This document shows, piece by piece, positions 411 through 34,540 of a stretch of DNA of 38,571 nucleotides. How positions within the stretch are numbered: the stretch's first letter is position 1; the number at the start of each line of letters is the position of its first letter. The stretch is from Lophium mytilinum. Taxonomy: Eukaryota. Made by a program: the position numbers and the translations under genes. Below the pieces are notes generated by a model. The model searched no databases. It was not told the DNA's origin and saw nothing but the letters and a program-made list of their open reading frames with translations. The stretch is from the NCBI GenBank assembly GCA_010093605.1, contig MU004188.1, forward strand, positions 24,182-62,752, given 5' to 3'.

Positions 411-469
411 AAGAACGCTAGAAGGAAATAAAAAGAAAAAGGAAAAGAAAAAGAGGTTATAGGCTATAT

Positions 470-3400
470 CGGGTTTAAATATAAGGGCGTAGTTATCTAG
501 TATAGTAAATTATATAGCGTAGTTTAGCTAATTATTAGTTATATACTAGTATATAAGAAGCTAGTATACTTAAGGTATTACTTATAAGGGCTTTTCTATT
601 ATAATAGCTTAGCCTACTTTATACAGCTAAAAATTCTAATCTTATTATAGTTATTATATATAAGGTTGTAATAAACTATATAAGGCTATTAATCGCGGTA
701 TAGAGGTATAGTAAGGTAATTATATAAAGATAAGGGCGTAGGTTGGTATAGAGTAATTATAATTATAATTAGTTAGTAGTAAGGTTATTATTATTATTAA
801 GGTTATTATTATTAGTAAGGCGCGCGCGCTAATTATTATTTAGTTTAAAGTCTAGATAAGAGCCGTTGGCATTAGGGTTAAGGTTATAGAATTTACTAAT
901 TAGGTCCGCGGCTTTAGATATAAATTACTTCTATAGTTACTATTTCTATAGTATAGTATAGCCCTTATAAAGTTCTTTATATTTAAGGTAGTAGTGTTCT
1001 TTTAGTCCGCGGCCGCGCCAGCGGCTATTAATAATGCGCGTAATTAGATATTATTTAACGGACTTAGAGGTAATAGGGTTAATTACCTAAACGGGAGGTA
1101 GTAGTAGCTAGTATTAGCCTAGTAGCGGACGGGACCTATCTAGGTGGAGTAGATATAGGTAGAAGACGGAGTATATTTAAGATTCTTTAAGGCTTATATT
1201 TATAAAGTTAAGTTAAAAGGCGTAACTATTATTAATAATCTTACTAATGTAAAAAGAACTGAGGTTCTTATAATTAAGTAACTTATTTAGTTAGGTAGTC
1301 TTTATATTACGGGCGTTAAGCTAGACCTAGTTATTAACTTAGAGCTTTAGCGGAGGGTTATAGTATTAGTTTATATAGTCTACTTACTTAGTTTATACCT
1401 ATATTATTATAGCCTTATATTTATTTAGAATCTTCTTTATCTAGTTAATATATCTATTACCTTAAAGCTGCCGGCGGCGAATAGTAGTATTATTGCTAAG
1501 GTTTAGTATAGGTAGAGGTTAAGGCGCGGGTTAGGTATTATTTATAATACTAGGTAGAGGTTTAAGGCTAGAGCGCGGGTAAAAACCCTTATTAATAAAG
1601 AATAGCGTTATTATAGTAGAGGTATTAACTTAGTTATTTACTAAAAATTCGCCGATAGGTAAATAATTAACCTAATTATTTTAGCGGTAGTTAATAAATT
1701 ACCTTAGGTAAGCCTTTATAATAGTGTTTATATTTTTAGTTTAGCTATTAGTTTTAGGGTGCGCTACTATAGAAATATTTTAGTAGATACTAAGGCGCTT
1801 ATAGACTTATTTCTAAATATCTAAAATAAAATATAGGTTGTAATTACTAATAATAATGTAAGGAAGTCTATAGAGATAATAGATTTTATAGAGAAAAGTA
1901 TTAATAATATTATAGATAGAAGTACTGCTTATAGAAATATAGTAATATTCCTTACTAGCGCGGTAGATAATAACTAGAATTTTAGTATAGATTTAGCTAT
2001 TACACTTATAGGGAGGGAGCTCTATAATAAAATCTATAGTAATATTAGTCTAATGCTATTCTAGTATATTAAGTAAATGTAGAAGGCCTTATTTCTTATT
2101 ATAGAAGGCCTTTAATTATTTACAACTATAGTAGGCGCTAGTATAGTTTTTAACTAAATTGCGTATACCTAGCTAGAAGTAGTAATGTTAGATAAGTTTA
2201 TATATACTATATTTTTCCGGGTACCTACTAATAGTAGTGTTATAGGTAAGCTATAGAAGCTTAAGGCGTAAATTATTATATATAGGTATATATAATCGGC
2301 CGTAGTAATATAGTTAATTATAGCGGACTTTAAATTTTAAGATATCTAGGTTACTAACTATATTGCGTAGTAATTAAGAAAGTATATATTTACTATTATA
2401 TATAAGCGTAATAAGTTTATAGAGTATAGAGTTAAAGAGCGGTTCTTATAAGTTCTATAGTAGGCTAAAGTAGCCTTTATTAAATAGGTTAGTAAGTATA
2501 CGCTAATAGATTAGGTTAGGGTCTACGTAGAGGTTATTATTATTTACCTAGAGTAGTTTAATTATAAGAGGAGGGTTAGAGTTAAAGTTAGGGTTAGAGT
2601 TAGAGTTAGGGTTAAAGTAAGGGTTAGAGTTAATATTATTATTACGCGCGTAACTATATAGTTATACAGGTGCAAGAAGAAATTAAGAGTATATCTTTAA
2701 TAGTAGCAACTCTATAGCTATTAACGGGTCTAACTCTTTATAGTAAGGTACTAGCCCGATTAGATTTAGTATATAGCCTAGGCTATTATTAGGTAAGCTT
2801 ATTAAAACGTCTAGTAAATAAGATACTACTCTATTCTCTAGGTTATAAGATTTAAGAACCGTTTAGTATTAGAATTAATAGCGAGGATTATTTAGGTCTA
2901 TAGAAAAATCTTATAAATATTTTATAAGGCTATCTAGTTTCCCTTCTAAAACGCCTAGTTAATAGATAATTTTAAAGTTAAAACCGGCGAGAAAGCTAGC
3001 CTAGCGGGCCTGGTAATAGTTAAGGTATTTAGTTAATATAAAGTATTCTAGATTATAATAGTCTATAAGTATATTAGTAGAATTATCTAGGTTAGCGCTA
3101 GCTAATTTAGGTCTCTATTCTTTAAAGGCTTTAATAATAGTAAGTAACTTCTTATTATAGATTTTATAATTGCATTCCTAGGGGTTTATTTTAGAGGAGA
3201 AGAAGGTAATAGAATAGAGTAAGCCGTTTTTACCTTCTTATAATATAACGCTAGCAGTAATATAGTCTAAAGCGTTAGTTTTAATATAGACTTTCTTGCC
3301 GTATTAAAAGTGGTAAAGAATAGGTACTATAGTAAACGCCGTCTTAAGCGCTTAGAAAGCAGTATTATATTTATTATTCTAAGTAAACTACGCCTTAAGC

Positions 3401-5241
3401 TTAGTCTTCTTACTATCTATAGTTTTTATTATAGATATAAGTAGGCTAATAATACGCAAGAATGCGTGTATAAAATATTAATAGAAGTTAGTAAATTTTA
3501 AAAACGCCTATATATCGCGCAGGCATATTAGTATTATCTAGTTAATAATAGCGGCAACTTTCTTAGGGTCTATTTAGACGCCGCTAGTTATAATAATAAG
3601 GCCTAGGTATTTAATTTCTATCTTATTAAATTTGCACTTAGTAAAATTATAGTTAAGGCCGGCTTTATTAAGTTATTTAAAAACTTTAGCAACGTGCTTC
3701 TTATATTATTCTTTTATACTATTTATATAGACTAAGACGTTATCTATATAAGTAGAATAGAAGTTATTAAGGTAGTTATATAGCGTTTAATTAATATAGA
3801 ATTAGAAGCGGCCTAGGCCCCCTATAACACTAAATAGTATAATAAGTAATTTATATTAGCTCTAGTAAGTAGAGAAGGCTATAAGGCCTTTATCTCCCTT
3901 ACGCATTTAAATATAATTAAATGCGGATATAACGTCTAGTTTAGAGTACTACTTAGTATTACTAAGCTTTTAGAGTGTTTCTTAGACTAATAGTAATAGA
4001 TATTAAGTTTTAATTATTATTATATTAACGGCTCTATAGTTAACGCAGAATTAGACCCTACTACCCAGTTTCCGGACGAGAAGTATAGAAGAGGACGTAG
4101 ATAACTATAACTTATAAATAAATCCTTTATTAAGGTTATTATTAATCTATTTCTTAATAACTTTAAGCTCTTCTTTAGATATAGCGTACGGACGGGCTTT
4201 AGGTAGTTTATTAGCGCTAGAAATAAGATTAATTTTATAATTAATTTCTAGTTAATAAGGGGGAAGCGTATTTACTTCTACTTAGTTAAAGATATAGACG
4301 TAGCGGCATAGTTATTTAAGTAGTTATTAAACTATCTCCTTATAGAAGAGGTGCTTCTTAGCGCGCATAAACTTTTTAATATCTTTAGCAGTAATTTTAT
4401 AGACTTTAAGTAGAATATTATTGCCTATATAGAAGGTAATAACTTATAAGCTATTATAAGTAATAATAAAGTTCTTATTCTTATTTTCTAAAGTTTTAAT
4501 AATATAATAAGAAATCTATTTAAGCTTCTATTCTTTATACTTAGAGATGGCGGCTATTTATATATAGGCGTCTATGCTAATAGGTTTCTAGTCTATAAGG
4601 TTATAGTAATTATTAGGTATATTATAAAAACGCATACTATTTACCTAGATAGTAATAGAGTTATAGTTAAAATAGTATATATAGTTCTAGCATAGTTTAT
4701 AGTAAGAGTAAATAAAGTCTAGGCGGCCTACTTTCTAGTTAATAGCTAGGTTATATTCTTAGAGCTAGTTAAGTTCTATAATAATATTATAGTCTCCTAG
4801 GTTAGTAATATAAGCCTAGTAACGGCTCTAATAGCTATTTATATCTATACTAAGAAGGGCTTTATATATTACTTTTTAGGTAATAGCTAATCTATTAGCT
4901 AGTTTAAGAACTTAGGCTTTTTTAAGGGGTTTTAGAGGTAGATTTACTAGGTGCGTAAACTTAGTACTAGTAAATAAATTAGTGGCTCTATAATTAAGAT
5001 AAGAATTAATTTTTATTATTTCTATAGGTTGTCCTTTCTTATAGGTTTATACTATTGCTAAAAGAACTATATTATTTACCCGCTTAATATTAAATCCTCT
5101 ATCTTTATTTTAAAATAGTTTCTATTAAGCTTTACTAAAAGAGGCTGCTAAAATAATAAGCCTTTAGTACTAAAGGTTTTATATAACTAAGTTCTTATTA
5201 TATTATAGACCGCAACTATAGTTTATAACCTTACTTTTCCC
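470..5241 (-). pseudogene. pol: pol relic of element A (protease, RT, RNase H, integrase, chromodomain)
   Basis: Minus strand: RT YIDNV (=YVDDV) near 3735-3750; RNase H TNALDY (=TDASDY) near 3262-3280; protease LNYRAT (=LDCGAT) near 4980-5000; collinear with pol of B. 3' end approximate. Confidence 0.92.
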
Positions 5242-7540
5242 TTAGAACTCTTACCTTTAGAGTAGCTAAAGCCGCGGTTATTATTAAGGGTTTTATAGTT
5301 GTTAAAACTATTATTATCTAAAAGTTCTTTAACGCGAGTAGTATAATTATTAAGACGGGGTGCTAGAAATATATCTATCTAATAAGTAGTAAAGCCTAAT
5401 TTATTAAGTTAATTTATAGAGTAGTATAGATTTTAGGTAAAGTACTTAAGAAGATAGTAGTAGAAATACTTACCCTTCTTTATAAGTGCTTCTTTATTAC
5501 CTTCGCGGAGTTTATTAGGCGGGGCCTAGTTAGAGAGAGGCGTAATCTTAATATTCTCTTAGGTTATAGAGGCAGTAGCTATAGTTAGAGGGCGTAGAGT
5601 GTAGTTATAGTTGCGGTAATTATAGTTATAATTATTACGGTTTTAGTTATTATAATTATAACTATCGCGACTATTATAATTAAAGCCTTAGGGCTAGTTA
5701 TAATTAAAGTTACTAAAGCTACAGTTAGTAGGTTGCGCGTTCTTATTAATACTATTATTATAGAGCTATTTATATATAGTATTAATCTACTATAGGCTAG
5801 TAGTAAAGCCTTTACCTAAAATAGCGCCGGTAATAATATCTAGGCGGAGTTTCTATTTAAGGTTATAGATATTATTATAGCCTCTTTAGCCTAGAAGGTA
5901 GATTATATATAATTTTATTAGTTTCTATATATAATTAGGTATTATACTACTTATCTAGATAAGCTTATAAAGCTTATTCTTAGTAGTGCTAATTTTATTA
6001 GAGTTATTATATTAGAAGTCTAAGAATATAATAGCTTTCTAGATAGTAAGGAATAGCTAGTAGCTATCTTACTAGGTGCGGAAGCCCTTAAGGAGTATGC
6101 CCGTAAGACACTTACTAAGGTAGATAAGGCGTAAGAGTTTACTAGATTTTATAGTATAGCTACTATAGTTAACTTTATTTAGAAATCTATAATAGAACTT
6201 AGAGTACTTATCCTTATTACTTCTAAACTTATCTAGATAGAGCTAGAACTTATCTTCTATATAAGGGACGCTATTTAGAGTAATACTAAGGTTTTAATAA
6301 TCTTTAGACGTCTTAATATAGAAATCTTAGTAATAGTAACAGGGACAGCTTATATTTTATAAATATAAGCGTAAGCGTAAGTATAAGCGTTAATAAAAGT
6401 AACGCTTATAAAAGTAGTTATAATAATAAGATAGGCTATATATATAATTATAGTAATAAGGAAGGCTTTTATTATTAAATAAGGGCGGGCTAGAGTTATA
6501 GCAACCGCGTATATATTCTATAGTGCGGCGAGCTTAATTTTTATTACTTATATACTCTATAGTATAATAAAGTTAATTAATATTATAGTTGCGGCCTACT
6601 AAGAGGCTATTATTAGCTTGTGCTTCTTCTAAGTAGATTACGCTATTAAGGGAGGCGAGTAGATCTTTAGCTACTGCGGTAATAGAGTTAATAGGTAGTA
6701 GAGGAGTAATAGGGTAGTATAGACGGGGCACTATAGGGGGTATTATTATAGAGGCAGCTATAGTAGGCGCAGGTATAGAAGTATACTAAAGTATCTATAG
6801 TATTTTAATTTTATTCTCTAAAGCTATAAGGCGCGTATTATATTTATACTTATTTTTAGCTACTTAAGTAAAATTAGCTATAAGGTATTCTATAATCTTT
6901 CCTTACTCTATAAATTACTTATTAGCCTAAATATAATTCTTCTACTAGGCCTTAATATCTATATTAAGAGAAGTAATAGTCTTATTAAGAGAAGTTACTA
7001 TCTTTTTATAAGTATAGAGTTTATTTTTATATTCTTCTAGTTTAGTTTTAATATTAAGTAGGCGTTTAAGTTTCTTATATATAGCTTCTAACTTATTATT
7101 CTTTTTATTATATTCTTCTTTAAGAACTCTAATCTTATCTTAAAGGTTATACTATACTTTCTAGTTATCTTTATATATCTACTAGAGAATCTTAGTTATA
7201 GCTTAATAGCTTCTAAAAATATAGAAGAAGTAGATAGAGTTAGCTTAGACTTACGCAAGAAAGTCTTAAGAGTCCGTAATCTTAATTAAACTGTTAAACT
7301 AGTTATTACTGGGCAGAAGTAAATAATCTAGAAACTTAGTAACATTATTAATAGCGTTAAGAAACGTGCTCCGGTTGCGGCCCTAACTAGAAGTATAATA
7401 CTTAGTAATAGAGCTATAGATTATTAGGTCTAGAGTATATATAGAATTATTAATATTATTATCTTTAGTAGCGTCTTTATTCTAGGTAAGCTAATTCTCT
7501 TTCTCTTAGGTTAGCTAAGTATCGGCGCGCACTATTTAGG
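5223..7540 (-). pseudogene. gag: gag relic of element A
   Basis: Collinear with gag of B; coiled-coil-like N-terminal part, degenerate zinc knuckle near 5420-5475, ends GGA AAA GTA AGG TTA TAA. Start approximate. Confidence 0.8.
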
Positions 7541-7955
7541 TAGACTGCTAGGTATCTTCTTAGATAGACTACTAGTTTACTAGCTTTTAGAGGGGCGCAC
7601 TCTTTAGAGTCTTATAAGGAGACTTAGAGGGCGCGTAAGACTATAAATAAGATAGTAGTAGAAAGTAGAAGGCTAGTTATAAGCTACTGCGCCTAGAGCG
7701 TCTAGGTTCTATTCTAGCGCCTAGTAGAGGCGGTAGATTACTTATTATAGAGGATATAGTAATAGCGCTTAGTAATATAAAATAGTAGTAAGGTAAGATA
7801 GTATAGCTATATACCCTTTAGTATTATATATATAGTTATATAGGTACGCTTACTAGGCTATTAGATAGCTTAGTAAATAAGAATTAAGGTTTAAGAGTTA
7901 AAGTAGTAATAGTAAAAAAGAATTAGTACTAGTTAGAGTATTAGATACAACCTAA

Positions 7956-8194
7956 TATTATAGTTATAGTATAGAGAGGCTTAGTAGTATAAGGTAACTA
8001 GGTTAAATTTAAGAAGTTATATAAGAAGTAGAAAGAGAGGCTTTTAGAAAGAAACTATATATATAGAGAAGAGAGGCGCGTAGACGCTAGGCAGGCTAGC
8101 GCATAGGCGGCACTAGGTAACATAATAGGTATAGAGGTAGAAGGCTAGTAACAGGTAAATTATATAACTAGAGAATAGAGCGTAATCTATTATA
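7956..8194 (-). repeat. 5' LTR of element A
   Basis: Direct repeat of 158-396; followed on minus by TTAGGTTGTAT at the PBS position. Confidence 0.95.
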
Positions 8195-8199
8195 GCTAT

Positions 8200-11100
8200 A
8201 TTATCTACCCTACTACCTTAATTCTCTAGCGTAACTTTATTAAGTAAACCCGGTAATTTATCTATAGTATTTTACTATCCTTATATATATATACCTTCTC
8301 TACTTTTTTTAACTCTATTATCTAATACCTTATCTATATCTACACCTGCTTCTACCTTATTTTTAAGTTAGGTAAATTCCTCTTCTATAACCTTAGTTAC
8401 TAGTATTAGGTAGAGAGATAATAAGGCAGCGTACTACTCTATCTAAACCTAACTATTATTATACGCTAGTTATATAAACTAACTTATATTAGCTAGCATT
8501 TTCTTCTTATTTATTTATTCTATAGCGTCTATTCTAGAAAGTACTTCTATAGCCTTATTTTATTATACTAAGAATAATTCTACTATAATCTCTTTATTAG
8601 TTATTTATATAAGTATATAAAGTAGTAATATAGTAATAAGAGCTAGTATTTAGTATTATATTATTAGTTCTAGTTATATAGGAGTAGAAGCTGCTATAGT
8701 TTATTAAGCGCGTAAACTTGCGTATAGTATTATAGCCGTCTATAGAGTATTCTAGAGGGTAAGGATAGTATATATACCTATATATATATATAGTATAGCT
8801 ATAGATTTAAGAAATACTTTATAGAAATAGTATATAGTAGATAGAATCTAGCCTAGAGCTCTATTATTATTATTTACGGCTTACTAAGGTATCCCTACGC
8901 TAGAAGGTAGTAATAGAGAGGGTAATACCTCTCTAGTATCTAGAGATAGTAGTAATATAGGTGTATAAGAAGATAATATAGAAGATATAGATAATAGTAA
9001 CTCTAATACTACCTCTTCTACTTCTTTATCTACTTAGGCTACTTCTTTATTTACTTTACTTTCTTTAGCTACTTCTTCTTCTTCTTTAACTACTGCTCTC
9101 TTAATAGTTTATATAATAGTATACTTACTACTATTACTTTAATCTTACTCTATAGCTTCTATTAATTCTATATTACTTTAAATTTTAGGTATATATTAGG
9201 CTACTCTTAACTTACTAGAGTATATACTACTACTAGTAGACTACTAGGTATAAGAAAGTTATATTAGTTAAGTAGGTTAAGAGGTTAGAGAAGTAAGAGA
9301 ATAAGTACTACTATAAGTAGCCCGCCCTAGAGTAGAATATTAGGTGGGTTTAGTAGATAGAGAAGGAGTAGTAGAATAGATACTACTATAGGTAGACTAC
9401 TATAGAGAAGTATATTATATAGGTTATATAGGTTAGATAGATAGAAAAGAAATAGTAAAATAGGTACTACTATAAGTAGACTACTGCAGAGAAGTATATT
9501 ATATAGATTAAGTAGAGGTAGAAGATAATAATTCTTCTATTAAGACGGGTTCTACTTAAGTTTATTAGAACCTAACTATAAATACTAGAAGATTATAAAA
9601 GATATACTAATTATAAGTTATATAATAGTTTTCTCTAAAGGCTTCTAAGGTATAATTAGTTATTAAAAGGGCGTAGGCGCAGGGCGGGTAGAATAAGGGG
9701 CCCTAATATTTATACTAGAAAGACCTCTAGGGTTTTTAAAGATAATTAGAAATAGATCTAGAATAGAAGTAGAAGTAGGCTTACTAGCCTTTTCTACTGC
9801 AGCTATTTAGTCTATAGCCCTCTTCTTTTTATCTCTCTTACGTTGGTTTAAATCTACTATTAAATGTAATTTAGCTACTTTTTACTCTTTTTTATTCTAG
9901 TACTTTTAGGGGCGTTCTATACTAACTACTAGGTATAGTAGTAAGAGGGATAATAGTTTAGAATATAGAGCTAAGAAGCGGAAAGTAGTTAAAGAGTATA
10001 ATTAGTTAAAAATAAGAATTTATTAATATTCTTATTATAGGGCTTACTCTGCCTAACCTATTTTAACACCCCTTATAGATACAGCTACTTAGTTAAGATT
10101 ACTAGGGAAGGGCCCTAGTAGGAAGGCTTTCTATAGTAGCTCTATTAATTACTTTATCTATAAATATTATATAAACTATATTCTACCCTTTACTTTATAT
10201 ATTTTATTTAATGCGGCTAAAATTTCTATTATATAAGAATACTATCTAGTAGCAACCTATACTAAGGTAAGGCTATTATAATATAAAACCCTTTCTATTA
10301 TATCTATTACCCTCTATAGGTACCTACTACTAGGACTTTACCTTTTCTATAATACTTTAAATTTAATTATATATACTATATATAGTATTATAGCTCTATT
10401 ATAGTATCTTAATATCTAGGAGTTATTATATATAGTAGTAGAAGGCTACTTAATTATAGAGCTATACTCTATGCTACTAGCTACTCTCTTTTCTTACTCT
10501 CTATACCTACCTAGAGCTATAACTATAGCCTATAAAATATTTCTAAATTACTAGAATACTATTATATTATATAATAAGTAATTTTCCTTATAAATATCTT
10601 TAATTTTATATTATAGTAGTTCTATATAGCGCTAGTTAAGGTCTTTATTAAGTATAAGGCTAGTATTATACTAAACTCTTTAAGTAACTTCTATTATTTA
10701 GAATCTTACCTCTATATATAACTACTACTACTACTATAGCCTATATATTAATTCTAAGTTAATAAATTACTATTATATTATATATTATATATAATTCTTT
10801 ATATATTTCTTCTATACTATATTATAGTAGTTATATACAGTAGTAGTTATACTAATTCTTAAGTATAAGGCTATTCTTACGCTAAACCCTTTAAGTAATT
10901 TCTATCCTATGCCTACATACTCTATAGCCTCTCTATACCTACCTTAAGCTACTACTACAGCTTATAAATTAAATTAAAGTTAATAGAACGCTATTATATT
11001 ATATTCTAAGTATTATTCTTTGCATGCATACTCTATTTTATATTATAGTAGTTAAATGCGGCGGTGTAAGGTTATACTATATATAATTCTTAAAGGTTAA

Positions 11101-11300
11101 TTTTCTTTATATTAAACTTACTTCTCTCTATCTAACTCTAACCCTCTAGCCCCTATAATAGTAGTAAATAAAAAACTAGATTATCTATAGAATTCTATAA
11201 GAAGATAGTAGATATTTTACGCTACCTCTTCTTCTATATATTAGGCGATAGAATAGAGTCTATAGAAGGGGTTCTAATAAGGCGTCTATTAAAGGTACTA
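8200..11300 (-). pseudogene. Unidentified intron-containing ORF relic (Glu/Lys-rich, Ser/Thr/Pro-rich and internally repeated segments); may be the C-terminal part of the SNF2 gene
   Basis: Minus-strand codon-like runs such as AVVKEEEEVAKESKV (about 9050-9100) and RKRDKKKRA (about 9815-9845); GT-AG intron-like segments; 8200-9266 duplicated at 37505-38571. Confidence 0.55.
10460..11070. repeat. Degenerate tandem repeat, about 210-220 bp unit, at least 3 copies
   Basis: TATTATAGTAGTT recurs at 10609, 10820 and 11041; TAAGTATAAGGCTA near 10650 and 10860; CTCTCTATACCTACCT near 10498 and 10929. Confidence 0.7.
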
Positions 11301-14300
11301 AGAGGGCTAGAAGATAGAGTTAAAGTAGGTTAATAGGCAGAAGTAGAAGCTACTATAATAGTTAGCACTTAAGTAATATAATAGGCGATACTAAAGGGCC
11401 CTAGTAGAAAGGCTTCCTAAAAAGGCCCTAGAATAAATTCTTACCTATATACTTTATAAGGAATAAAGTATTATTCTTATACTCTTTACCTTTAGAGTTA
11501 TTACTATTTAGCCTACTAAAAGGGTTATTATTATCTATATTACTAAAAATAGCGGGCACTTAATATAAAGGGTTATACTTTAGCCTATATTAATAGATAA
11601 AAGGGGTATAAGCCTTTCTAGTAGTACTCTTTATAGGGGTAGGCATATTAGATTTAGTAGAATTTAAGTCTTTAACTATAATAGTAGACTTAGGGTTAAG
11701 CTTATACTTCTTAATAGTAGCCGCTAGTATAGCACTAGCTTTACGCTTCTACTTTAAAGCTTTACTATTTTATTACTCTAGCGTTTTTAGCTTTAGCTTT
11801 AGGGTGGCTTTTACTATAAAATATAGATTAGTAAAGTATAAAGAGGTAAGTAGAGCCCTAGTAGAAAGCCTTCCCGCTAGAATCTATAAGGGCAAACTTA
11901 CTACTTATAGAATAATACTTAAGCCTTAAACCTAGCTTATTAATATGCAGTTTCTTAGGCGCTCTACTTACACCCTTCTTCTACTCTTCTTCTAATTCTA
12001 ATTTAGTAAATTTATACGCTTATTCTTCTTAAAACTTATTACTAAACCTATTAGACTAAAAAGTTATATTACCTTATATAAGAGTTATTAGAAATATAAG
12101 AATATCTTATAGAAAGTTAAAGCGCTTAATATATAATTCTACTAGCATATTTAAAATATCTATTTTACCTATAATAAGGCGGGGTGTAATACTCTTATTA
12201 TTATAGGTTACCTATATATACTAGCTATCTAGGGTTAGCTTTTCCTTAGAGGTCCCCTCTACCTTAATCTAGTTAGTATTTAATATAGTAGTAAGACTAG
12301 AAAGCGCTATCTATACCTAGCGTAAGAGAGTAAAGGCATTAAATATATTCTAGATAAAGAACGCAGTTACTATAATAGTAAACTTCTAGCTAATCCTATA
12401 TAAACGCGCTATTACCTACTTCTTAATCTAAATAGAGCCTGCAGGGTTAAAAAGATATATATTATAATAAGTAGACTATAGATTAAGTCTAGCTCTATTA
12501 GTCTAGTAACTAGTAATAAGAATCTTTACTTTAGAGTTAGGGTTATTAAATAATAAGATAAGGTTATCCCGGTTAGTAGTAGAGAGATTAGAGGCTAGTA
12601 TATAAGTATCTATTTTATAATAGTTAATAATCTTAGTAAGAATTATTTACTTATCTAGGTAGTTAGTCTAGATAATAACCTTCTCTATATACTTAATAAT
12701 ATTATTAGCTAAATAGTATAGTAGTGTAGCTACTTTAGGGGTATTATAGATAAAAAGGGTAATAATATAATAAAAGGGTGCAGACTTTACTTTAAAGTCT
12801 TTCTAATTAGGGTTAGTTTAGATATTCTTATTCTAGGCAATTTACTTTATTATGCCTTGTAAAACATCTATTTCCTTTAACTAGTAACCGCTATTATTCT
12901 TAAGAGGGATAATTTTTAGGCCGTTCTTAATCTTATTACCCTCTAAATCTAAGACCTTCTCTTGCGGATATACTATTATAGCGCGCTTAAAGTAGACTAA
13001 AAATAGCGTAGTACTTATAAGATTAAGAGTATATATAGAGCATGTATTAAATATATAGGTACGCTAGCCTATACAGTTCTTAGTAGAAACTATTAATAAC
13101 TTAAGATAGCTTAGTAATTTATTAGTATAGATAATATAGCCTAGTTTTATAGGCTATAGCTTAATTACTTATATAACTAACTATAGAAGTAATCCTCTAA
13201 TTTAGATAGTAGAATTAGTAGAATTATTTAGGTATATAGAAGGGTATAAGTAAGTAATTATATACTTACTAAAAATTAAGTATAAATAAAGCCTCTATAT
13301 AATCCTAGAGAAATATTAGAAAATTAAAGTAAATAAGAGAAGAAATAAAAGCCCTAGCTAGAAGTCTTTCTACTAGGGCCCTTTATATAATAACTTACAG
13401 GTTAAATAAAGGTAGAATAAAATTTTTAAAAGCCTTACGTGTATACTAGAAAATTACACCTAAATAGTTATTAGAAAGCTTAAATAGATTATTAGTACCC
13501 GGAATAAACTTAGCTTTACCGGGTTTTAAGCGGTACGTGCGGAATTATAGATACTTATCTCTTAGTTCTATAAAAGATATATAAGTAGGTATATTAGTAA
13601 TACCTATATATAGCGGGGTTCTACTATAAAGTATAGTAAAGTCTAAGTAAAGCTATAATATAGTTAGGTAGAGGTTTACTTAGTTACTTTTAATAAGCTA
13701 GCACTTGTCTATAAATTAGACATTAAAATAGCTACTTAAGAGACTAGGCTAGGTAGAGCTTAGGCAATATTTAACCTAGTTCTTTAGCTTAGTAAGATTA
13801 TTATTACTATACTACTTTAATGCGGGCTAGGGACTATACTAACTAGCTATTACCTAATAGCTGGCGATTATAATACTCTTAGCATTCGCCTTATTTTTAG
13901 TATTAAATAAGGGATAGTCCCTAGTTAAGGTATTATATAGAAATATAGCGCTATAGAAAGTAACTTAGCCCTTTAATAAATAGATATAGAGCTTAAGTTT
14001 AAAACTAAACTATATAAGTTTATTTGCTATTTAGTATACTAAAATAGAAGGTATAAGAAAAAGAAAGAGCTTTACTAGCCCGGGGTCTTTCTTATCTATA
14101 ACTTTGCGCTGGCGCTTAGTAATAAGCTATAATTAAATTAGTAGATGCTAAGAGAAACTATTAAAGGGGTAGTAGAAAGGCTTTCTATTAATACCCTTTA
14201 AAGAGAAATTACTTATATATCTAATAAGGGTAGCTATTAAAAATGTCTTTCTAATACTAATCTTATCTATAATTAAAGCCCTACTAAGAAAGCCTTTCTA

Positions 14301-16400
14301 TATAATATAGTATATATAGTAAGCCCTAGTAATACTACTACCTTAAGTAAATATTACTATTTATTATAATAAGGCGGGGTTTCTAATAGTTATAAATATA
14401 TAGGGCCTTTATTACTTCTTTAAGGTTATCTAGCTAATAGGCTTTATTAGTTATTAGAAGGCGGAGTATACTTTATATTATAAGATCTACCGCGGTTAAT
14501 ATAGTAAAGGGGATAATATTCTTTATATTAATAGTAGTAGCCCTTATATTAGCCTCTATATCTTAGGCATATTTAATACTATCTAGATTAGTATACTTAT
14601 TCTTATTTAGATCTATAGCGCATATATTTAGGTGCTATTTAATAGTATATATAAAATCTTCTACTATCTATCTAATTACCTAATATATATTATATTAAAA
14701 CTTTAATAAGTTCCAGTTAATTATTACTCTAGTGCGCTTAGCATGCGTAATTACTAACTTAAGCTTCTATTTTATAGTACTAGTAATATACTTAGTACTA
14801 GTAATATTAATATTATCTTTCTTCTTATTAACTAGGTTTATAGTAATTTTCTCTTTAGATAACCCCTAGATAGGGTTATCTATATTAACCTCTATATTAA
14901 TAGCCGCAAGTTCCTTCTTAGTAAAATAAGAGGGCGACTACTAATAGGGAGGCCTAGAAGGGCCTTAATAGAAAGGCTTTCTATTAATATTCTTACTACT
15001 ATAAGTAATAGTTTTAGCCGGGGTCTTAGGTACTAGTGCTAGACTAAGCTTTATTTTTTAAAGAATATTCTATATCTTAATTTAGTTCTTAATATAGACA
15101 GTTCTACTAGCTTAAGACAGGCTACTTTTAAATTCTATATTTTTCTTTAATTTAAAGAAGATTCTAAGCGCTTTATTATTAGTAATATTAGCACAGTTAT
15201 ATAAAAACCTACTAAACCGCTTCCAGTAGTAATTAAAGCATTAACTAATAAATTAAGCTACCTAATCTACGGGTTTATAGTTATCTATCTTAGGCTAAGA
15301 AGTAGTATATTACTATAGATTATATAACTTACTAGTCTTAAAAGTATTTAGAATAGTAGTAAAACTAGCCTCTTAATTTTAACTATATATAGCGCGCTTT
15401 AGGTCTAAATACCTATTCTTATACTTATTTTAAATTACTTAAAAATTAGGCTTAGCTAGAATTACTTTAAGTTCTACTTTTATTTAACTATAAAGCTTAG
15501 CTAACTTTATTCTACTAGTATATAGCGTATTTACTAAGGCCTATAACTTCTCTAACTTTTTATCTTTTCTACTACTAGTAACTAGCGCTTAAAGCTTTTC
15601 TTACTCTTTATTAAAGTTCTTAGAAATATTAGAGTTATTACTATAGTTATTACTATCTAGATAAACTACTTTACTATTTACTAATATAAGCGTCTCTAGA
15701 TCTATTATAGTGGCCGGCTAATTACGCTTTAAATTAATATAGGTATTAACCCCTAATTTAGTAACTAGTAGAGAGGTAGAATTTAGATCTTCTAGCACTT
15801 TAGAAGAAGTAGATTATTTCTTATAGCTATTTACTAGGTTAGTTATAGGTAATATATATAGGAATGTAATCTTTACTACTACCTTACTAGGGTCCCTATT
15901 ACTTAAGGTATTTATAGCTAGCCTATTAATATATTAGCTTATCTTAAATAATAGAAGAAAGAAGGTAGATAAAGAGCCCTAGTAGAAAGGCTTTCTACTA
16001 AGACCCTATATACTATGCCGGGTATTTTTAGTATTATTATTTTCTTAATATTTTCTACCGCCGCATCTTTAAAATTAAGGTAGACTAATCTACTAAGACT
16101 AGTAAAGGGCTCTAGTAGAAAGCCTTTCTATAATAATCCTTATAATATACTTACCTTACTCTACTCTTAGAGAAATTGCAATAGAATAAACCTATTAGTA
16201 GAATTAGCTATAATATAACTTAATTTTACCTGCTAGATAGTAAACTTACTAAAAGGCTTAACCGCTAGCTAAAAGAACGCCTAAAACTAGCTAATTACGG
16301 CTCTAATATAGCTAGAAAGCTGCTAACTATTATCTAGCAAGTAAGAAACTAGCGTGCAACTATTCCGCAGGTAGCTAGATAAGTAGAAGTAATAGAGGTG
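11300..16400 (-). pseudogene. SNF2/SWI2-family (SF2) helicase-like ATPase gene relic, multi-exon
   Basis: Minus-strand motifs in the expected order (observed, then de-RIPed): SRALIIDKISIRKT = GGALIADExGIGKT (motif I, about 14245-14285); IDKC*LIK = VDECQLIK (II, 13689-13712); YSRTP = YSGTP (III, about 13613-13628); FNNPNSKVKILI and RARLNL*S = GAGLNLQS (V, about 12470-12552); FNP...*VIARLYRIS*K = QVIARLxRIGQK (VI, about 12385-12452). Outer boundaries approximate. Confidence 0.85.
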
Positions 16401-16684
16401 CGGTAGTATAGAAAAAGAGGTTAGTATAGAAGTAAGAAAGTTAAAGCTGCTAGGCAGTAGATAAGTTTATAGGCGGCCGGGCTAATAGCCGCCGGCTACT
16501 AAGATACTAAGCCTTTAATAGTAAACTACTTAAGTTAACTCTTAAGATTAATATAATAGCTATATATTATATAAGGTTAAAATATCGCAGGTATAAATAT
16601 ATTAGTGTTTTACTTAATTTTACTAATATATAAATATTTATAGTTAATCTATAATACTATACTATATATTACCTAGTTCTAGTA

Positions 16685-16694
16685 NNNNNNNNNN
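16685..16694. other. Assembly gap with duplicated flanks
   Basis: 10 N; 16638-16684 is repeated exactly at 16695-16741. Confidence 0.9.
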
Positions 16695-16989
16695 TTATAG
16701 TTAATCTATAATACTATACTATATATTACCTAGTTCTAGTAATATAGTACTACGCTAAGATAGGTTAATAGAATATTGCGCGTTATTATATAACTATTTA
16801 TTTATAGTATAAGAGTTTTACTAGAAAGCTTTTCTACTAGAGCTCTTTACTACTTATATTAAGTATACCTATTATTACCTCTCTTCTTATATATATTACT
16901 GCTATATACCTACTAGATAAGAATTTGCGTACTATATAAGAGCCTAGCTAGAAGCCTTTCTACTAACGCTCTTTATATTTTATACTAAA

Positions 16990-18761
16990 TACTTTACTAT
17001 CTTTCTTATTAATAATTCTTCTTTATAACGCCGCCCCTACTAGTCTACCTATTAATACTTAAATCTATATACTCCTTAAAACTCTTCTACTTAAGCCTTA
17101 TTCTTCTAGGCCTCTTACTCTAAGTTCTTTAAGTTTTCTATTTCTAAGCTATAGTTACCTAAACTCTCTTTATACTTATACTCTTTATCTAATAACTAAC
17201 TACTTATATCCCCCTCTTACTTCTTCTATATTACTAAATAATTCCGGAATTCTTTAATTATTAGAATCCTGCCTAAATAAGCCCTTAGGCTATTTAGTAT
17301 ATAGTACTTAAATCTAAGCTAGATATATTTTAGATTAACTTAACCCCTAGGGCCTATAATATTATCCTCTATTATTATTATCTTTAACTTTCCTAGGCTT
17401 TCCTAGGTTATATTCTATACTTCCTTTGCAACTATATCTATACTAAGGTTAACTACCCCCCCTTAAGCCTATTCTTTAATATATTAGCTTAGTTAGGCTA
17501 CCTTATAGTAGTAGTTATTTAGTAGTTATATATAGATCTACTATATATTTATAATTATATCTCTTCCTCTAATATTATCTTATATATCTTTAGAGTTATT
17601 TTATTTAGCTTAATGCGTGGTTAAAATTTTATTATTATTATATCTTAGAAGAACCTAGAGTAATAAGGCGGCTCTTACTTATAGATTATTAAGGAATTAT
17701 TCTACTATTTTTAGTAACGCTTTATTTCTAATTATTATATTTAATCTTTACAATTTTATATAGAAGGGACTATTATTCTATTTTTAAGTTTCTATAGCTA
17801 GATCTATAATATTAAATAGCGGCTAGACTTAATTAATCTAGCGTCTAGTTAAGTATATTAGATAATTTATATTACTATTTCTAGCTATATTCTATATACA
17901 GGCGTAGCTTACTATAAGTTCTAACTTTATATATAGCCTTATAAGTATATTAAAATAAAGCGCAACTATAGATCTATATAGAATACTCTTAAGAAATTAG
18001 TTATATAGTTCTTTACTCTTCTATTATATCTTAGTATTTCTATCTTCTTCTATATACTATCTACTTAGAAGCTTATATATATTAGTATAGTATACCTTAA
18101 TAATAAGCGCAGCTACCTTACCTATCTATAGCGGTGCCGATTACTAATCTTTTTATACTTTAGTTCTATTTTTATATTAAATAGCTAGTATATACTATGC
18201 TATAATACTATACTATAGATACTATATCTCTATATTCTTCTTAGTAAGAGATACCTAGATCTAAGCTTTAGTAAATATAGCTTAGAATTAATTCCTAAGG
18301 CCGGCTTACAGTTAATTAACGCCTTAAGAACTAAGTTATAGAGGCGTTATTATCTAATCTAAGTACTCTAACTTTAGCTAAGCTATACTATACTTCTTAA
18401 GGGAGTCTAATAATCTAAGGCTATATAAGGTTATAGAATTCTAGGGGTCTTTTTAATTTATCTACTCTTTTTTCTATAGTATAGATAATTAAGTAGAATT
18501 ACTATATCTAGTAGTAATTTATATAAGGTAAATATAAAGAGATGCTAAATAACTATTTACTAGCTATTTATCTAGTATTACTATATGCCTAGTATTACGC
18601 CCGGGGGTAACCTAAAGAGATAGTACCTAGAAAAGAAATATCTAGTAATTAAGGTTTATAATAGTAAAGGTATTAACTTCTTCTATAGAAAGAACCTAGT
18701 AGGGGTAATAAGACTTACTACTATTATCCGGCCTATTCTTTATAGTAAATTTAGAACTTAC
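16990..18761 (-). pseudogene. Unidentified ORF relic of the host element, interrupted by element B (5' part continues at 35350-35573)
   Basis: One minus-strand frame reads as protein for about 1.6 kb if TAG/TAA are restored to Gln/Trp; candidate intron GTAAGT...TTTCTAG at about 18628-18717; TSD links it to 35350. Confidence 0.5.
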
Positions 18762-19004
18762 TATAATAGATTACGCCCTATTTTCCGGTTATATATTTAC
18801 CTATTACTAGCCTTCTACCTCTATACCTATTATATTACCTTGCGCCGCCTACGCGCTAGCCCGCCTAGCGCCTACACGCCTCTCTTCTCTACATATATAG
18901 TTTCTATCTAGAAGCCTCTCTTTCTACTCCTTACACAACCTCTTAAAATTAACCTACCTAGTTACTTTATATATACTAAGCTCCTCTATACTATAACTAT
19001 AATA
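18762..19004 (+). repeat. 5' LTR of element B
   Basis: Direct repeat of 35107-35349; TATATA at 18894-18899. Confidence 0.95.
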
Positions 19005-19015
19005 TTAGGTTGTAT
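19005..19015 (+). other. Primer-binding position of B (non-tRNA type, probable self-priming)
   Basis: TTAGGTTGTAT directly follows the LTR; AGGTTGT(A/G)T is complementary to ACACAACCT at 18933-18941 within the LTR. Confidence 0.6.
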
Positions 19016-19429
19016 TAATACTCTAACTAGCACTAATTCTTTTTTACTATTACTACTTTAACCCTCGTACCTTAATCCTTATTTACTAAGCTATCTAATA
19101 GCTTAGTAAGGCGTACCTATATAAACTATATATATAATACTAAAGGGTATATAGCTATACTATCTTACCTTACTAAGCGCTATTACTATATTCTTTATAA
19201 TAAGTAATCTACTACCTCTACTAGGCGCTCTACTAGGCGCTAGAGCCTCTACTAATAACCTAGGACCTAGATATTCTAGGCGCAGTAGCTTATAACTATT
19301 CTTCTACTTTCTACTATTTTATATATAGTCCCGCGCACCCTTTAAGTCTTCTTATAAGACTTTAAAGAGCGCGCCCCTTTAAAAGCTAACTAAGAGAGAC
19401 ACCTAATAGTCTACCTAAATAATATACGC

Positions 19430-21689
19430 AGATAATACTTAGCAGGCTACTTAGAAGAAAGAGAATTAAGTTACCTAAGAGAACTAGCTTACCTAAGATA
19501 ATAACGCTACTAAAGATAATAATATTAATAATTCTATATATACCCCGGACCTAATAATCTACAGCTCTATTACTAAGTATTATACTTCTAGCCGGGGCCG
19601 TAACCGGGGTACGTTCCTTAACGCTATTAATAATATTACTAAATTCCTGGATTATTTACTCCTGCCCGGTAATAACTAGTTTAATAGTTTAATTAAGATC
19701 GCGGACTCTTAGGACTTCCTTACTTAAGTCTAAGCTAACTCTATCTACTTCTTCTATATTCTTAGGAGCTATTAAGCTATAACTAAGATTCTCTAGCAGA
19801 CATGTAAGGATAACTAGAAAGCGCAGCGCAAACTCTAAGATAAAATTAGAGTTCTTAAAGATAAATATAATAAAAAGGATAATAACTTAAAAGCCGCGTA
19901 TAAGAAACTTAAACGCTTACTTAATATTAAAACTAAACTTAGTAAATATAAAAATAAACTTTGTATTTATAAGGATATAATTACTTCTCTTAACGCGGAC
20001 GTTAAGGCCTAGTAGAAAAACTACCTCTAAGCTAATAAGTAATCTATAGAGCGAGGAAAAATTATAGAACGCCTTATAGCTAACCTTACTTAAGTAGCTA
20101 AAAATAAGTATAAATATAATACGCGCCTTACTACTTTAGAGAATAAAATTAAAATACTATAGATACTTTAGCGTACTTTTATACCTGCGCCTACTATAGC
20201 CCCTTCTATAATAGTACCCCTAGTGGCACGCTATTCTATTATACCTCTACTACTAGTTAACTCTATTACTATAGTAGCTAAAGATCTACTCGCCTCCCTT
20301 AATAGAGTAATCTATTTAGAAGAAGCATAAGCTAATAATAGCCCCTTAGTAGACTATAATACTAATTAACCTTACTGCACTATAGAGCACGTAAGTAATA
20401 ATTAAGCTTACTGCACCTTAGACTACGTACGGGGCCGCTATAACCCTAGCCCGCCCTTATTTAATAACGGAAGCCCCCCTTATCGCCGCAATTACACGCG
20501 TAGTCTATCTTATTATTATAATTACTTCTGTAAGTATTACTCTTATTAACGCTTACGCTTACGCTTATAATTATATTTATAATACGTAAGCTATTACTAT
20601 TACTAGAACCCCTATATTAAGACGTCTAAAGATTATTAAAACCTTAGTATAGCTCTAAATAGAGTTTCTTATATAGAAGATAAGTTCTAGCCCTATCTAG
20701 ATAAGTTTAGAGGTAATAAAGATAAGTACCCTAAGTTCTATTAGGGATTTCTAAATAAGGTTAACTATAGTAGCTACACTATAAGGTCTAGCAAGCCCCT
20801 ACGTCTTATATATCTTAGTAAATAACTTACTAGTATACCTTTAAAAGGCTTCCGTGCCTAATAAGATAGCTACTAGCCCTTTCTTACTATCTAGAAAGCT
20901 ATTACATCCTTAGACTTCTAATATAATAACTCTAATAAGATTAGTACTACTAAGAATAAGCTTTATAAGCTTATCTAGACTAATAGTATAACCCCTAATT
21001 ATATATAGAAGCTAATAAAGTTATATATAATCTATCTTCTAGGCTATAGGGGCTATAATAACGTCTATAACCTTAAGTAGAAACTCCGCCTAGATATTAT
21101 TACCGGCGCTATTTTAGGTAAAGGCTTTACTACTAGCCTATAGTATATTAACGCCGCACGTAAATAGCTCTGCAATAATAGTATTAATAAGAACGCGCAA
21201 TCTAATAACTGCAGCTTTAGTAATTTTAACCGCAACTAGCCCTAAGGCTTTAATCGCAATAGTCGCAACTATAATAACTATAATTACTGCAACTATAATT
21301 ATAACTATAACTGCAACTATACTCTATACCCTCTAACCGCCGCTGCTATCTCTATAACCTAAGAGGATATTAAGATTACCTCTCCCTCTAACTAGGCACC
21401 CCCTAATAAACTCTATAAAGGCGATAAAGAAGCGCTTATAAAGAATAGTAAGTGCTTTTACTGCCGCCTTTCTAAATACTTTACCTAAAACCTATATTAC
21501 CCTATAAACTAACTTAATAAACTAGGCTTTACTACTTATTAGATAAATCTAGCACCCCGTCTTAATAATTATGCTGCCCGCGTTAAGGAACTATTAGACG
21601 ATGATAGCTTTAATAACTATAAAACCCTTAATAATAAGCGCGGCTCTAGCCACTCTAAAGGTAAGGCTAAGAGAAAAGTAAGGTTATAG
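19430..21689 (+). pseudogene. gag: gag relic of element B
   Basis: Zinc knuckle CFYCRLSKY(H)... at 21453-21503; the frame reaches TAG at 21687-21689 just after the slippery site. Start approximate. Confidence 0.82.
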
Positions 21690-24600
21690 ACTAGAGTTGC
21701 GGTCTATAATATAATAAGAACTTAGTTATAGAGAATCTTTAGTATAGAAGGCTTATTATTTTAGTAGCCTCTCTTAGTAAAGCCTAATAGGAACTATTTT
21801 AAAATAAAGATAGAGGATTTAATATTAAGCGGGTAAATAATATAGTTCTTTTAGTAATAGTATAAACCTATAAGAAAGGACAACCCGTAGAAATAATAAA
21901 AATTAATTCTTATCTTAATTATAGAGCTACTAATTTATTTACTAGTACTAAGTTCGCGCACCTAGTAAATTTACCTTTAAAACCCCTTAAGAAAGCCTAA
22001 GTTCTTAAACTAGCTAATAGATTAGCTGTTGCCTAAAAAGTAATATATAAAGCCCTTCTTAGTATAGATATAAATAGCTATTAGAGCCGTTACTAGGCTT
22101 ATATTACTAATCTAGAAGACTATAATATTATTATAGAACTTAACTAGCTCTAAAATTATAACCTAGCTATTAACTAGAAAGTAGGCCGCCTGGACTTTAT
22201 TTACTCTTACTATAAACTATACTAGAACTATGTATACTATTTTAACTATAACTCTATTACTATCTAGGTAAATAGTATGCGTTTTTATAATATACCTAAT
22301 AATTACTATAACCTTATAGACTAGAAACCTATTAGCGTAGACGCCTATATATAAATAGCCGCTATCTCTAAGCGTAAAGAATAGAAGCTTAAATAGATTT
22401 CTTATTATATTATTAAAACTTTAGAAAATAAGAATAAGGACTTTATTATTACTTATAACGGCTTGTAAGTTATTACCTTCTATATAGGCGATAATATTCT
22501 ACTTAAAGCCTATAAAATTACTACTAAAGATATTAAAAAGTTTATGCGCGCTAAAAAGTACCTCTCCTATAATAAGATAGTTTAATAACTATTTAAATAA
22601 CTACGCCGCTATATCTATATCTTTAACTAAGTAGAAGTAAATATACTTTCTTCTTATTAACTAGGCGTTAATTATAAAATTAATCTTGTTTCTAGCGCTA
22701 GTAAACTATCTAAAGCCCGTCCTTATGCTATATCTAAGGAAGAGCTTAAAGTTATTAAGAAATAGATTAATAATAACCTTAATAAAGAGTTTATTTATAA
22801 ATTATAATCCTCTACGTTCTCTCCCGTACTTCTTATCTAAAAACCGGGCGGTGGAGTCTAATTCTATATTAACTACAGAGCCGTTAATATAATAATAGTT
22901 AAAACTTAATACCTATTACTACTAGTCTAAAAGACTCTCTAAAAGCTTAGTAACACTAAATAGTACTCTAAGCTTAATATTATTTCCGCCTTTAACTATA
23001 TTTAAATGCGCGAAGGCAATAAAGGCCTAATAGCCTTCTCTACCTAATAGAGTTAATATAAATTGCTTGTTATGCTATTTAGTATTACTAGGGGCCCTAG
23101 ACGTTTTTAGTTCTATATTAATTAAACACTACATAACTACCTTAATAACTTCTATTCTATCTATATAAATAATGTCTTAGTCTATATAAATAGTATAAAA
23201 GAATAATATAAGAAGCATATTACTAAAGTCTTTAAACAACTTAATAAAGCTAGCCTTAACTATAATTTTACTAAGTGCAAATTTAATAAGATAGAAATTA
23301 AGTATCTAGGACTTATTATTATAATAGGCGGCGTCTGCATAGACTCTAAGAAAGTTGCCGCTATTATTAACTAGAAAATACTAATGTGCCTACGCGACGT
23401 ATAAGCCTTCTTAGAATTTACTAACTTCTACTAACGCTTTATATACGCGTTCTCTTAGATTATTAATCTACTTATATCTATAATAAAGACTATAGATAGT
23501 AAAAAGACTAAACTTAAGGTATAGTTTACTTAGAACGCGGAATGCAACTAAGCTTTCTAAGTACTTAAGATAGTATTTACTACTATATCTATTCTACGCT
23601 ACTTCTAATATAGTAAGAAGGTCTATATTAAAATAGACGCTTCTAACTATATTATTACTAGCGTTATATCTTAAGTAGGGGAGGACGGTCTACTCTACTC
23701 TATTGCCTTCTTCTTATCTAAAATAAGCCCCTAGGAATATAACTATAAAATCTATAATAAGGAGCTACTTGCTATAGTTAAGGCTTTTAAAGAATAGTAT
23801 CTAGAACTAGTAAGCGCTAATCTAGATAACCCTATAGATATACTTATAGATTACTATAATCTAGAGTACTTTATATCTACTAAGTACCTTAATTATTGCT
23901 AAGCCCGCTAGGCTAGTTTTCTAGCCGGATTTAACTTTAAAATTATCTACTAACTAGGCGTTCTTAGAGGAAAACTAGATAGCCTAATAAGAAGATTATA
24001 AGACCTGCCTACTAATCTAGATAACCCCTGTAATTAGTTTTAGCACTAAATAGTCCTTAAGTCTTATAACTTAGGGCTAGGAGTAGCATCTTATTTACTA
24101 GATATTTAAATAAGCTTACCTAATAATAGCCTAGGCCGCACGCTAAACCTAATTAGGCTACTGCCTTGCTATAAAGAGTTAGACCTATTAATAACTATAG
24201 AGTTACTACTATTAAAGATATACTCTTAATTTCTTCTTACACCTATATAGTTATGTAGCTACACGCGCAATAATAATATTAACTCTAACCCTAACTCTAA
24301 CCCTAACTCTAACCCTAACTTTAACCCTTACCTTAAACCTAATCCTTCTCTTGCAATTAAACTACTCTAGGTAAATAATAATAACCTCTATATAGACCCT
24401 AACCTAATCCGTTAGTATATACTTACTAAACTATTTAATAAAGGCTACTTTAGCCCGCTATAAAACTTACTAGAGCCGCCCTTTAACTCTATACTTTATA
24501 AACTTATTACCCTTATATATAATAGTGCGCGCGCACTACTCTAACCTTTATATAATATTATTAGCAATCTTAATATCTTAGAATTTAAAGTCCGCTGTAA

Positions 24601-25984: not shown

Positions 25985-26189
25985 TATAATAGATCTAGGC
26001 CTCTTTTCTAGCTATAAGCCTAGCACGTGTCTAATAGTTACGTGCTCGCTAGGAATATTATTATTCTACTACCAGCGTGCCTCTCTAGATAGATTATAAG
26101 CAGCCTTATACTCCGGCTTCTTATAGCACGTCTTATAATATAATTCTACTTTTTATTCTATATACCTCTATACCTTACTACCTATAATA
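25985..26189 (+). repeat. 5' LTR of element C
   Basis: Direct repeat of 34331-34535. Confidence 0.95.
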
Positions 26190-26384
26190 CTATATACTAC
26201 CTATATATATAATTTTCTTTTCTATAGCCCTAATTACTTATTGCAAAGTTACGCCGCGCGCTATACCGCTGCAGCCTTAATATTATTACTTTAGTAGTAT
26301 AACCTCTTAAATTAATTATGCAACCTACGGGTACTAATTCCTTTAAGACCCTATTACTAGCCTACTAGCTATCTAGTTAAGAGA

Positions 26385-34130: not shown

Positions 34131-34132
34131 TT

Positions 34133-34535: not shown

Positions 34536-34540
34536 AGAAA

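Follow-up and report, generated by a model that had tools for sequence, protein, structure and literature searches.

A RIP-inactivated SNF2-family ATPase gene in a directly repeated unit of Lophium mytilinum, with candidate hairpin-bearing introns

Introduction

What kind of sequence lies between two retrotransposon insertions in a heavily mutated stretch of the fungus Lophium mytilinum, and did the helicase-like gene that it carries belong to a mobile element? The stretch is 38,571 nt long (NCBI GenBank assembly GCA_010093605.1, contig MU004188.1, positions 24,182 to 62,752 of the forward strand) and is called the window here; all coordinates are those of the window. An earlier note had described positions 8195–18761 as a mobile or amplified element with an SNF2-family helicase, degraded by repeat-induced point mutation (RIP). 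Our answer, which we hold with moderate confidence, is that this block is a RIP-inactivated copy of a ~12.7-kb repeated unit, arranged directly and apparently head to tail, and that its sole recognisable gene is long and intron-rich and encodes an orphan, fungus-specific SNF2-family ATPase.

The Relic of an SNF2-Family Gene

A full-length relic of an SNF2-family ATPase gene was found on the minus strand at 12236–15543, as three collinear matches to hidden Markov models (HMMs) of its family. The stop-masked translation of 12100–13369(−), with X in place of stop codons, was compared by phmmer with 1.84 billion proteins. This search gave 83 matches at E ≤ 1e-3, six of them at E ≤ 1e-10, with a best value of 1.7e-27. 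Seventeen of the matches were scanned with Pfam, which identified SNF2-rel_dom (PF00176) in 15 and Helicase_C in 16. An HMM built from 36 matches of at least 500 amino acids was then run on the six-frame translation of the window and produced exactly two matches, the N-lobe at 14093–13410 in frame −1 (60.3 bits, E 4.2e-20) and the C-lobe at 13129–12236 in frame −2 (118.6 bits, E 9.8e-38). A further HMM was made from alignment A4, in which eight long homologues were joined by the N-terminal open reading frame (ORF) of the un-RIPed locus L001, one of four contigs (L001–L004) of one metagenome that carry a distantly related SNF2 unit. On the minus strand it matched a family-specific N-terminal region at 15543–14341 (frame −0, E 9.4e-9), the SNF2 N-lobe at 14129–13353 (frame −1, E 4.4e-12) and the helicase C-lobe at 13129–12236 (frame −2, E 8e-29), while the best E on a reversed-sequence control was 1.5. 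The SNF2-family ATPase named in the earlier note is present, with the three regions in the expected order.

The motifs that had been read in order were recovered in part: II, III, V and VI stand in the HMM alignments, and I does not. Motif II appears as ‘DKCX’ at 13709–13698, aligned to DEAH. The string DECQ that had been reported is literally absent, and ‘DKC-stop’ is DECQ read back through RIP; we accept it as the Walker B motif because E to K and Q to stop are both RIP-type changes. Motif III is ‘SRTP’ at 13625–13614 for TATP, motif V is ‘RLNLX’ at 12490–12476 for GlNLq, and motif VI is ‘XVIARLYRISX’ at 12418–12386 for QAiGRvrRlGQ. Motif I (Walker A, GxGKT) would be expected at 14340–14130, a place that is aligned by no HMM and is interrupted by two palindrome units of the kind described below. 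A look-alike at ~14440–14380 was rejected as motif I, since it aligns to a segment ahead of the FWQP box of the family. Between the two palindrome units, an open stretch at 14262–14215 (−) reads ‘IRLVLERHFXXLPLLD’, loosely like the Walker A region of the family (VGLGKTFQ...), and may be a mini-exon.

The direction of the mutations is that of RIP. In 487 aligned codons, 115 equal the family consensus, 103 more are explained by C>T/G>A changes alone and 10 by the reverse changes, and 28 codons are stops. In the highly conserved columns, 41 of 50 positions are either identical (27) or explainable by RIP (14). Judged by these codons, the relic is a once-intact family member that was killed by RIP. 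The intact protein would have consisted of a family-specific helical N-terminal region followed by two RecA-like lobes and would have acted as a DNA-dependent ATPase.

Pfam recovered little of this. Stop-masked six-frame translations of 8195–18762 gave nothing at E ≤ 0.1, and shorter pieces of the window gave Helicase_C alone (E 0.037, 14.7 bits), under the 23.5-bit cut-off. The Pfam check that had been proposed thus yielded one sub-cut-off helicase match and neither DDE nor DUF3435; the SNF2 identity was established by the family HMM instead. For annotation, the difference between an E of 1e-37 by family HMM and 0.04 by Pfam is of practical use in spotting such relics. No ORF of at least 100 amino acids exists anywhere in the window. 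Pfam scans of part of the host sequence found no second gene, and scans found no support for coding in 8195–10100 or across position 1.

The Repeated Host Unit and Its RIP Signature

Self-comparison and the reading of junctions resolved the window into host sequence invaded by long terminal repeat (LTR) retrotransposons. The segment 8195–18761 is exactly the piece of host that is bounded by two insertions of a gypsy-like element, A, of which copy A1 occupies 158–8194 on the minus strand and copy A2 occupies 18762–35349 on the plus strand, inverted relative to A1 and interrupted by a nested element, B. In silico excision of A1 and of A2 with B left 13.9 kb of host, the first 1.2 kb of which (1–158 plus 8195–9266) became one seamless direct match to 37348–38571. 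The host left of A1 (1–157, no strand assigned) carries the target duplication at 153–157 and runs on into 8200 onward. Individually, 1–163 matches 37348–37509 at 93.9%, and 8195–9266 (no strand assigned) matches 37500–38571 at 93.7% over 1072 nt, so the partial duplication of the block noticed earlier is real. The second copy is in direct orientation, lacks the A1 insertion, starts at 37348 and ends with the window at 38571.

Comparison of the two host copies over 1225 columns counted 75 transitions, 1 transversion and 1 gap column, which argues that little else separated them at the time of RIP and that they were then nearly identical. The match runs from window base 1 to the last base, so that the window edges cut it at both ends and the repeated unit may be much longer. 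In host coordinates the repeat period is ~12.7 kb, in keeping with a possible head-to-tail array.

RIP was strong throughout. The guanine plus cytosine (GC) content of the whole 38.6-kb window is 0.29, and its RIP indices are 1.84 for TA/AT and 0.18 for (CA+TG)/(AC+GT). The same indices in 11100–16400 are 1.87–1.90 and 0.14–0.17, the latter on a par with the 0.07–0.27 measured in the proven repeats of the window. The gene was indeed fully RIPed, as had been claimed, and at 3–7 kb from the nearest repeat seen in the window RIP had the same strength as within the retrotransposons. From this RIP level far from proven repeats, and from a duplication that is cut by the window edges, we infer that the SNF2 part itself is multicopy. 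The history would then begin with duplication of the unit, after which RIP would have mutated all copies, C to T and G to A, and left the 28 stops counted above. Retrotransposon A would have inserted twice into this copy and B into A2, and the inserted A and B would have been RIPed in turn.

The host left after excision yielded neither terminal inverted repeats nor any other terminus of the unit, and scans of the window found no transposase, recombinase or unit-level target duplication. The earlier note had likewise identified no transposase or terminus in the window. Where the block had been called mobile or amplified, the direct repeat bears out the second word, and nothing of this kind was found for the first.

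Palindromes and Candidate Introns

Eleven copies of a 41-nt palindrome with the consensus TAAAGGGCCCTAGTAGAAAG[G/C]CTTTCTACTAGGGCCCTTTA were identified at 10106–16975, each in an intron-like unit oriented with the minus-strand gene. Their centres lie at 10126, 11412, 11869, 13365, 14180, 14293, 14976, 15990, 16123, 16829 and 16955, so that all copies in the window are confined to 6.9 kb (10.1–17.0 kb), and none was found in 24.6 kb of retrotransposon DNA. The exact 13-nt core of the palindrome matched seven times against 0.04 expected, with all matches in 10120–16129. The copies align only over the ~41-nt core, their flanks being unalignable, and they occur in both orientations when judged by the central base.

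Splice-like signals accompany these palindromes. On the gene strand, most copies lie a few bases 3' of GTAAGT or RIPed ATAAGT and 5' of a CTAAC/TTAAC-like branch site that is followed by YAG. Donor-like and branch-plus-YAG signals occurred jointly at six of the 11 minus-strand sites and at no plus-strand site (0 of 11), compared with 8.5% of random positions (n = 2000). Both frame changes of the SNF2 gene fall at palindrome sites. At one of them, a candidate intron of 94 nt at 13305–13398 (−), GTAAGT...CTCTAG, contains one palindrome; taking this intron out brings the N-lobe and the C-lobe into one reading frame, since its length is 1 modulo 3, as a shift from frame −1 to frame −2 requires.

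The same core was found outside the window. L001 and L003 each contain a single copy of the core AGGAAGGCTTCCT, whereas none of 200 shuffles of either locus reached one match. In L001 it lies within a canonical GTAAGT...TTAAC...TAG intron directly after Walker A, and the window has a palindrome unit at the homologous place. The distant relative that shares this core in a homologous intron is ~30% identical in the SNF2 C-lobe.

On account of the strand-biased splice signals, the restored frame and the core at the homologous L001 intron, we read the palindromes as hairpin cores of a putative introner-like intron family that multiplied within the transcription unit. Introner-like elements are expected as several near-identical copies in intron-like units that follow the orientation of the gene, and the 11 candidate units have this appearance. 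A long intron-rich minus-strand gene, or a set of co-oriented genes, is plausible at ~17.0–10.1 kb, as the 11 intron-like units span 16955–10126 and homology covers 15543–12236. The earlier suggestion of a very long multi-exon gene survives for this interval and finds no such units in 8195–10100 or across position 1. A search of Rfam with 10000–17100 returned a single chance-level match (E 0.89).

Relatives of the SNF2 Gene

None of the 17 scanned homologues, and no frame of the window, gave a Pfam match to RING or HIRAN, the domains by which membership of the Rad5/Rad16-like subfamily would be predicted; the family therefore does not appear to belong there. In one source, relative P0014 appears as a hypothetical Microsporum audouinii protein. 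Its best match among solved structures reached just E 1.7e-17, over the N-lobe only, and we therefore regard the family as a fungal orphan SNF2 lineage and not as a housekeeping remodeller. Word-based protein searches yielded P0004 alone, P0006 with six generic SNF2 proteins, and P0014 alone, and a protein atlas yielded generic SNF2 clusters only. A model of the family's N-terminal region shows a helical domain whose helical core spans residues 140–300; its mean predicted local distance difference test score (pLDDT) is 49.6. A fold search with this domain gave no convincing match, the best Z of 5.2 lying under the chance range quoted for the tool.

The four metagenome contigs supplied an independent view of such a unit. 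L001 is un-RIPed, with a GC content of 0.486 and RIP indices of 0.99 and 1.01, and L002–L004 are RIPed, with a GC content of ~0.35. Between L001 and L003, 503 of 511 differences are C>T/G>A changes from the un-RIPed L001. A tblastx comparison of L001 and L003 with the window recovered the SNF2 C-lobe only, so that the metagenome unit is a different repeat, analogous to the one in the window and distantly related to it. The shared metagenome unit has sharp ends, at L001 231–7751, beyond which the flanks are AT-richer (GC 0.40 and 0.39). By Pfam, the ORFs of L001 and positions 1–7301 of L003 contained the SNF2 gene and no second gene; in L001 and L003, searches for a transposase, a tyrosine recombinase, a Rep domain, terminal inverted repeats or a target duplication at the level of the unit found nothing.

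Several smaller features of these contigs were recorded. The unit of L001–L004 is 7.5 kb plus, and the un-RIPed copy has the hexamer AATTGT at each of its two junctions. L001 holds a 208-nt stretch (4478–4686) that is missing from the RIPed copies, and one in-frame stop at 5796–5798. Upstream of the SNF2 gene, L003 carries at 700–7460 a tandem series of about three sub-repeats, each roughly 2.3 kb long.

Alternative Explanations

A direct repeat with a ~12.7-kb period fits head-to-tail amplification as well as transposition, and the unit could be a mobile element or part of one, either an undescribed DNA element with an SNF2 ATPase or a passenger in a larger element (a Starship, for example) with its recombinase beyond the window. 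Repeated SNF2-bearing units in three fungi (the window, the repeat X3X3R8 of Parastagonospora nodorum and the metagenome loci) speak for this, as do the sharp ends of the metagenome unit and the position of its un-RIPed copy between AT-richer flanks, as for a young insertion. We nevertheless consider it somewhat unlikely. Neither the window nor L001 and L003 gave any transposase, tyrosine recombinase, Rep domain, terminal inverted repeat or unit target duplication; the N-terminal region models as helical with no convincing fold match; and the two host copies lie next to each other in one orientation, the layout of a tandem amplification. The amplification was probably segmental or tandem, with no transposition. 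RIP is known to leak into single-copy genes embedded in AT-rich repeat blocks, and the 1.2-kb sequence could be a small repeat of its own or a long terminal direct repeat beside a single-copy SNF2 gene that was mutated from its neighbours. Only 1–158 plus 8195–9266 is demonstrably duplicated, which is what such leakage would allow for, yet the relic is RIPed as heavily as the nearest proven repeats (9266 and 18762) from which it is ~3 kb away. The density of stops in its codons, the place of the family outside the conserved housekeeping SNF2 subfamilies (the structure match of P0014 being weak and confined to the N-lobe) and a duplicated match that is ended by the window edges, with no loss of similarity, also argue against leakage, and we regard it as very unlikely. 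The repeated unit with an orphan SNF2 gene is preferred over both, although several points weigh against it. Just 1.2 kb of the unit is seen twice and the SNF2 part is seen once in the window, and the head-to-tail layout is extrapolated from the 1.1 periods in view. Pfam is weak on DNA so degraded and may have missed a second gene or a recombinase.

The intron part of our interpretation has its own difficulties, being drawn from sequence signals alone. Present hairpin stability is modest, with z-scores of −0.14 to −2.92 and one of the 11 stretches beating all 200 of its shuffles; we attribute this to erosion of the stems by RIP. Around motif I, 495 candidate splice models score from 52.6 (median) to 60.9 bits. 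The palindromes could instead be miniature palindromic DNA insertions or protein-binding sites scattered in the unit, with no introns involved, as conservation limited to the ~41-nt core between unalignable flanks, the occurrence of both orientations by the central base and the modest stability would suggest. Such sites would leave unexplained the bias of splice-like signals to the gene strand (six of 11 against none), the frame restored by removal of one unit, the presence of the core in a canonical L001 intron at the same gene position and the complete lack of copies in the retrotransposon DNA; this makes them a rather unlikely alternative to candidate introns.

Comparison with Known Systems

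The closest known counterpart is X3X3R8 of Parastagonospora (Stagonospora) nodorum SN15, a multicopy, RIP-degraded repeat that carries Rad5/SNF2-like helicases (Hane & Oliver 2010, PMC3017866). The earlier note had treated an SNF2-type helicase in fungal repeats as without precedent, a view that this repeat contradicts. X3X3R8 is 26 kb long, has tandem helicase-bearing X3 units, exists in nine gene-bearing copies and encodes three helicase genes, a Rad6-like ubiquitin-conjugating enzyme as well as ORFs that are uncharacterised, with no reported transposase (PMC3017866). By description, it resembles the present unit as a large RIP-degraded unit with an SNF2-like helicase, the multicopy state of the SNF2 part here being our inference; its X3 units are tandem where ours form a direct ~12.7-kb repeat, and a transposase was noticed in neither. 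The two differ in that three helicase genes are packed into 26 kb there and one SNF2 gene into each ~12.7-kb period here. A Rad6-like enzyme was reported there, whereas no UQ_con match was found here in any frame of 8195–18762, with Pfam being weak on such DNA. The label ‘Rad5-like’ may not apply to the SNF2 relatives in this study, as RING and HIRAN were predicted in none of the 17.

In ascomycetes, the amplification and RIP of SNF2-bearing blocks is recurrent, as seen in the window, in X3X3R8 and in the metagenome loci. Similar blocks are thus already known, and the stretch is a variant and no new kind of element. It is the second clear case, and with the metagenome loci the third, of a large helicase-bearing fungal repeat that was amplified and then destroyed by RIP. 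A bolder proposal would join the units of this genome, the X3 units of P. nodorum and L001–L004 as an undescribed mobile or self-amplifying element spread across Pezizomycotina; it would encode a single large protein, an SNF2 translocase of ~1,100–1,400 amino acids with a family-specific helical N-terminal domain, and would carry a conserved hairpin intron able to seed new introns. We consider this quite doubtful.

Starship, Helitron, AcademH and KolobokH elements resemble the unit as large fungal repeats with a helicase-type ATPase. In Helitron, AcademH and KolobokH the helicase is of the PIF1 or RecQ type, whereas it is of the SNF2 type here, and the window scans gave no Rep or DDE match. 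No match to the DUF3435 captain of Starships was found in the six frames of 8195–18762 or in further pieces of the window, the ends of the unit lying outside the window. The literature searched yielded no SNF2 gene as Starship cargo, nothing specific on SNF2 in giant fungal elements and no description of the unit in question.

Introner-like elements of fungi were reportedly treated by van der Burgt et al. in 2012. They are multicopy near-identical introns (Collemare et al. 2013, PMC3609843), and the sister (stw)introns of Hypoxylaceae are described as symmetrical (PMC8469720). Our candidates would share with both groups multicopy near-identical intron sequences, a symmetrical hairpin-forming core and new gene positions. 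They differ in that the 11 copies lie within 6.9 kb of one repeated unit and nowhere else in the window, in that the conserved part is just ~41 nt long, and in that the same core recurs in a homologous intron of a relative only ~30% identical in the C-lobe. The putative hairpin-bearing intron family would reach an unusual density within one gene, and its core would have persisted in the matching intron of a distant relative. Dense hairpin introns of this kind offer a compact test bed for the spread of introner-like elements.

Retrotransposons and Other Features of the Window

Elements A and B are LTR retrotransposons by their LTR pairs, their 5-bp target duplications and the reverse transcriptase (RT) and RNase H of A1, the copy that was scanned for these domains. 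The minus strand of A1 matched RVT_1 (E 4.8e-12) and RT_RNaseH_2 (E 2.5e-17). Its LTRs lie at ~158–396 and 7956–8194 and differ over 238 columns by 18 transitions and no transversions. The A1 insertion is flanked by GCTAT at 153–157 and 8195–8199, and the empty site in the second host copy, near 37500, reads GCTGT. A2 is flanked by CTTAC at 18757–18761 and CTTAT at 35350–35354. Between the two copies of A, 915–8195 corresponds to 25997–18761 at 84.5% and 158–932 corresponds to 35349–34536. Element B, nested in A2 at ~25992–34535, has LTRs of 198 nt at 25992–26189 and 34338–34535, which are 90% identical and differ by 19 transitions and no transversions. In their RT regions, A and B share ~66% identity. 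The LTR of A contains a palindrome, GC-rich (0.76) and with arms of 14 nt, at 279–311 and 35191–35223, which is kept in two LTR copies.

Past A2, the host continues at 35355–37347 (no strand assigned) with a GC content of 0.205 and no match elsewhere in the window. This is the most AT-rich part of the unit, with long TAA/TAATAA runs. A non-coding-looking stretch at 9298–11054 gave no Pfam match; Tandem Repeats Finder identified in it an 84-nt unit repeated 2.6 times at 9298–9510 and a 211-nt unit repeated 2.6 times at 10492–11054. Two sequencing runs of one sample contained 0.43 and 0.40 of the words sampled from 11500–14500. Finally, in heavily RIPed DNA, a 47-nt direct duplication (16638–16684 and 16695–16741) is 100% identical between its copies, and it either postdates the last round of RIP or lies below the target length of RIP.

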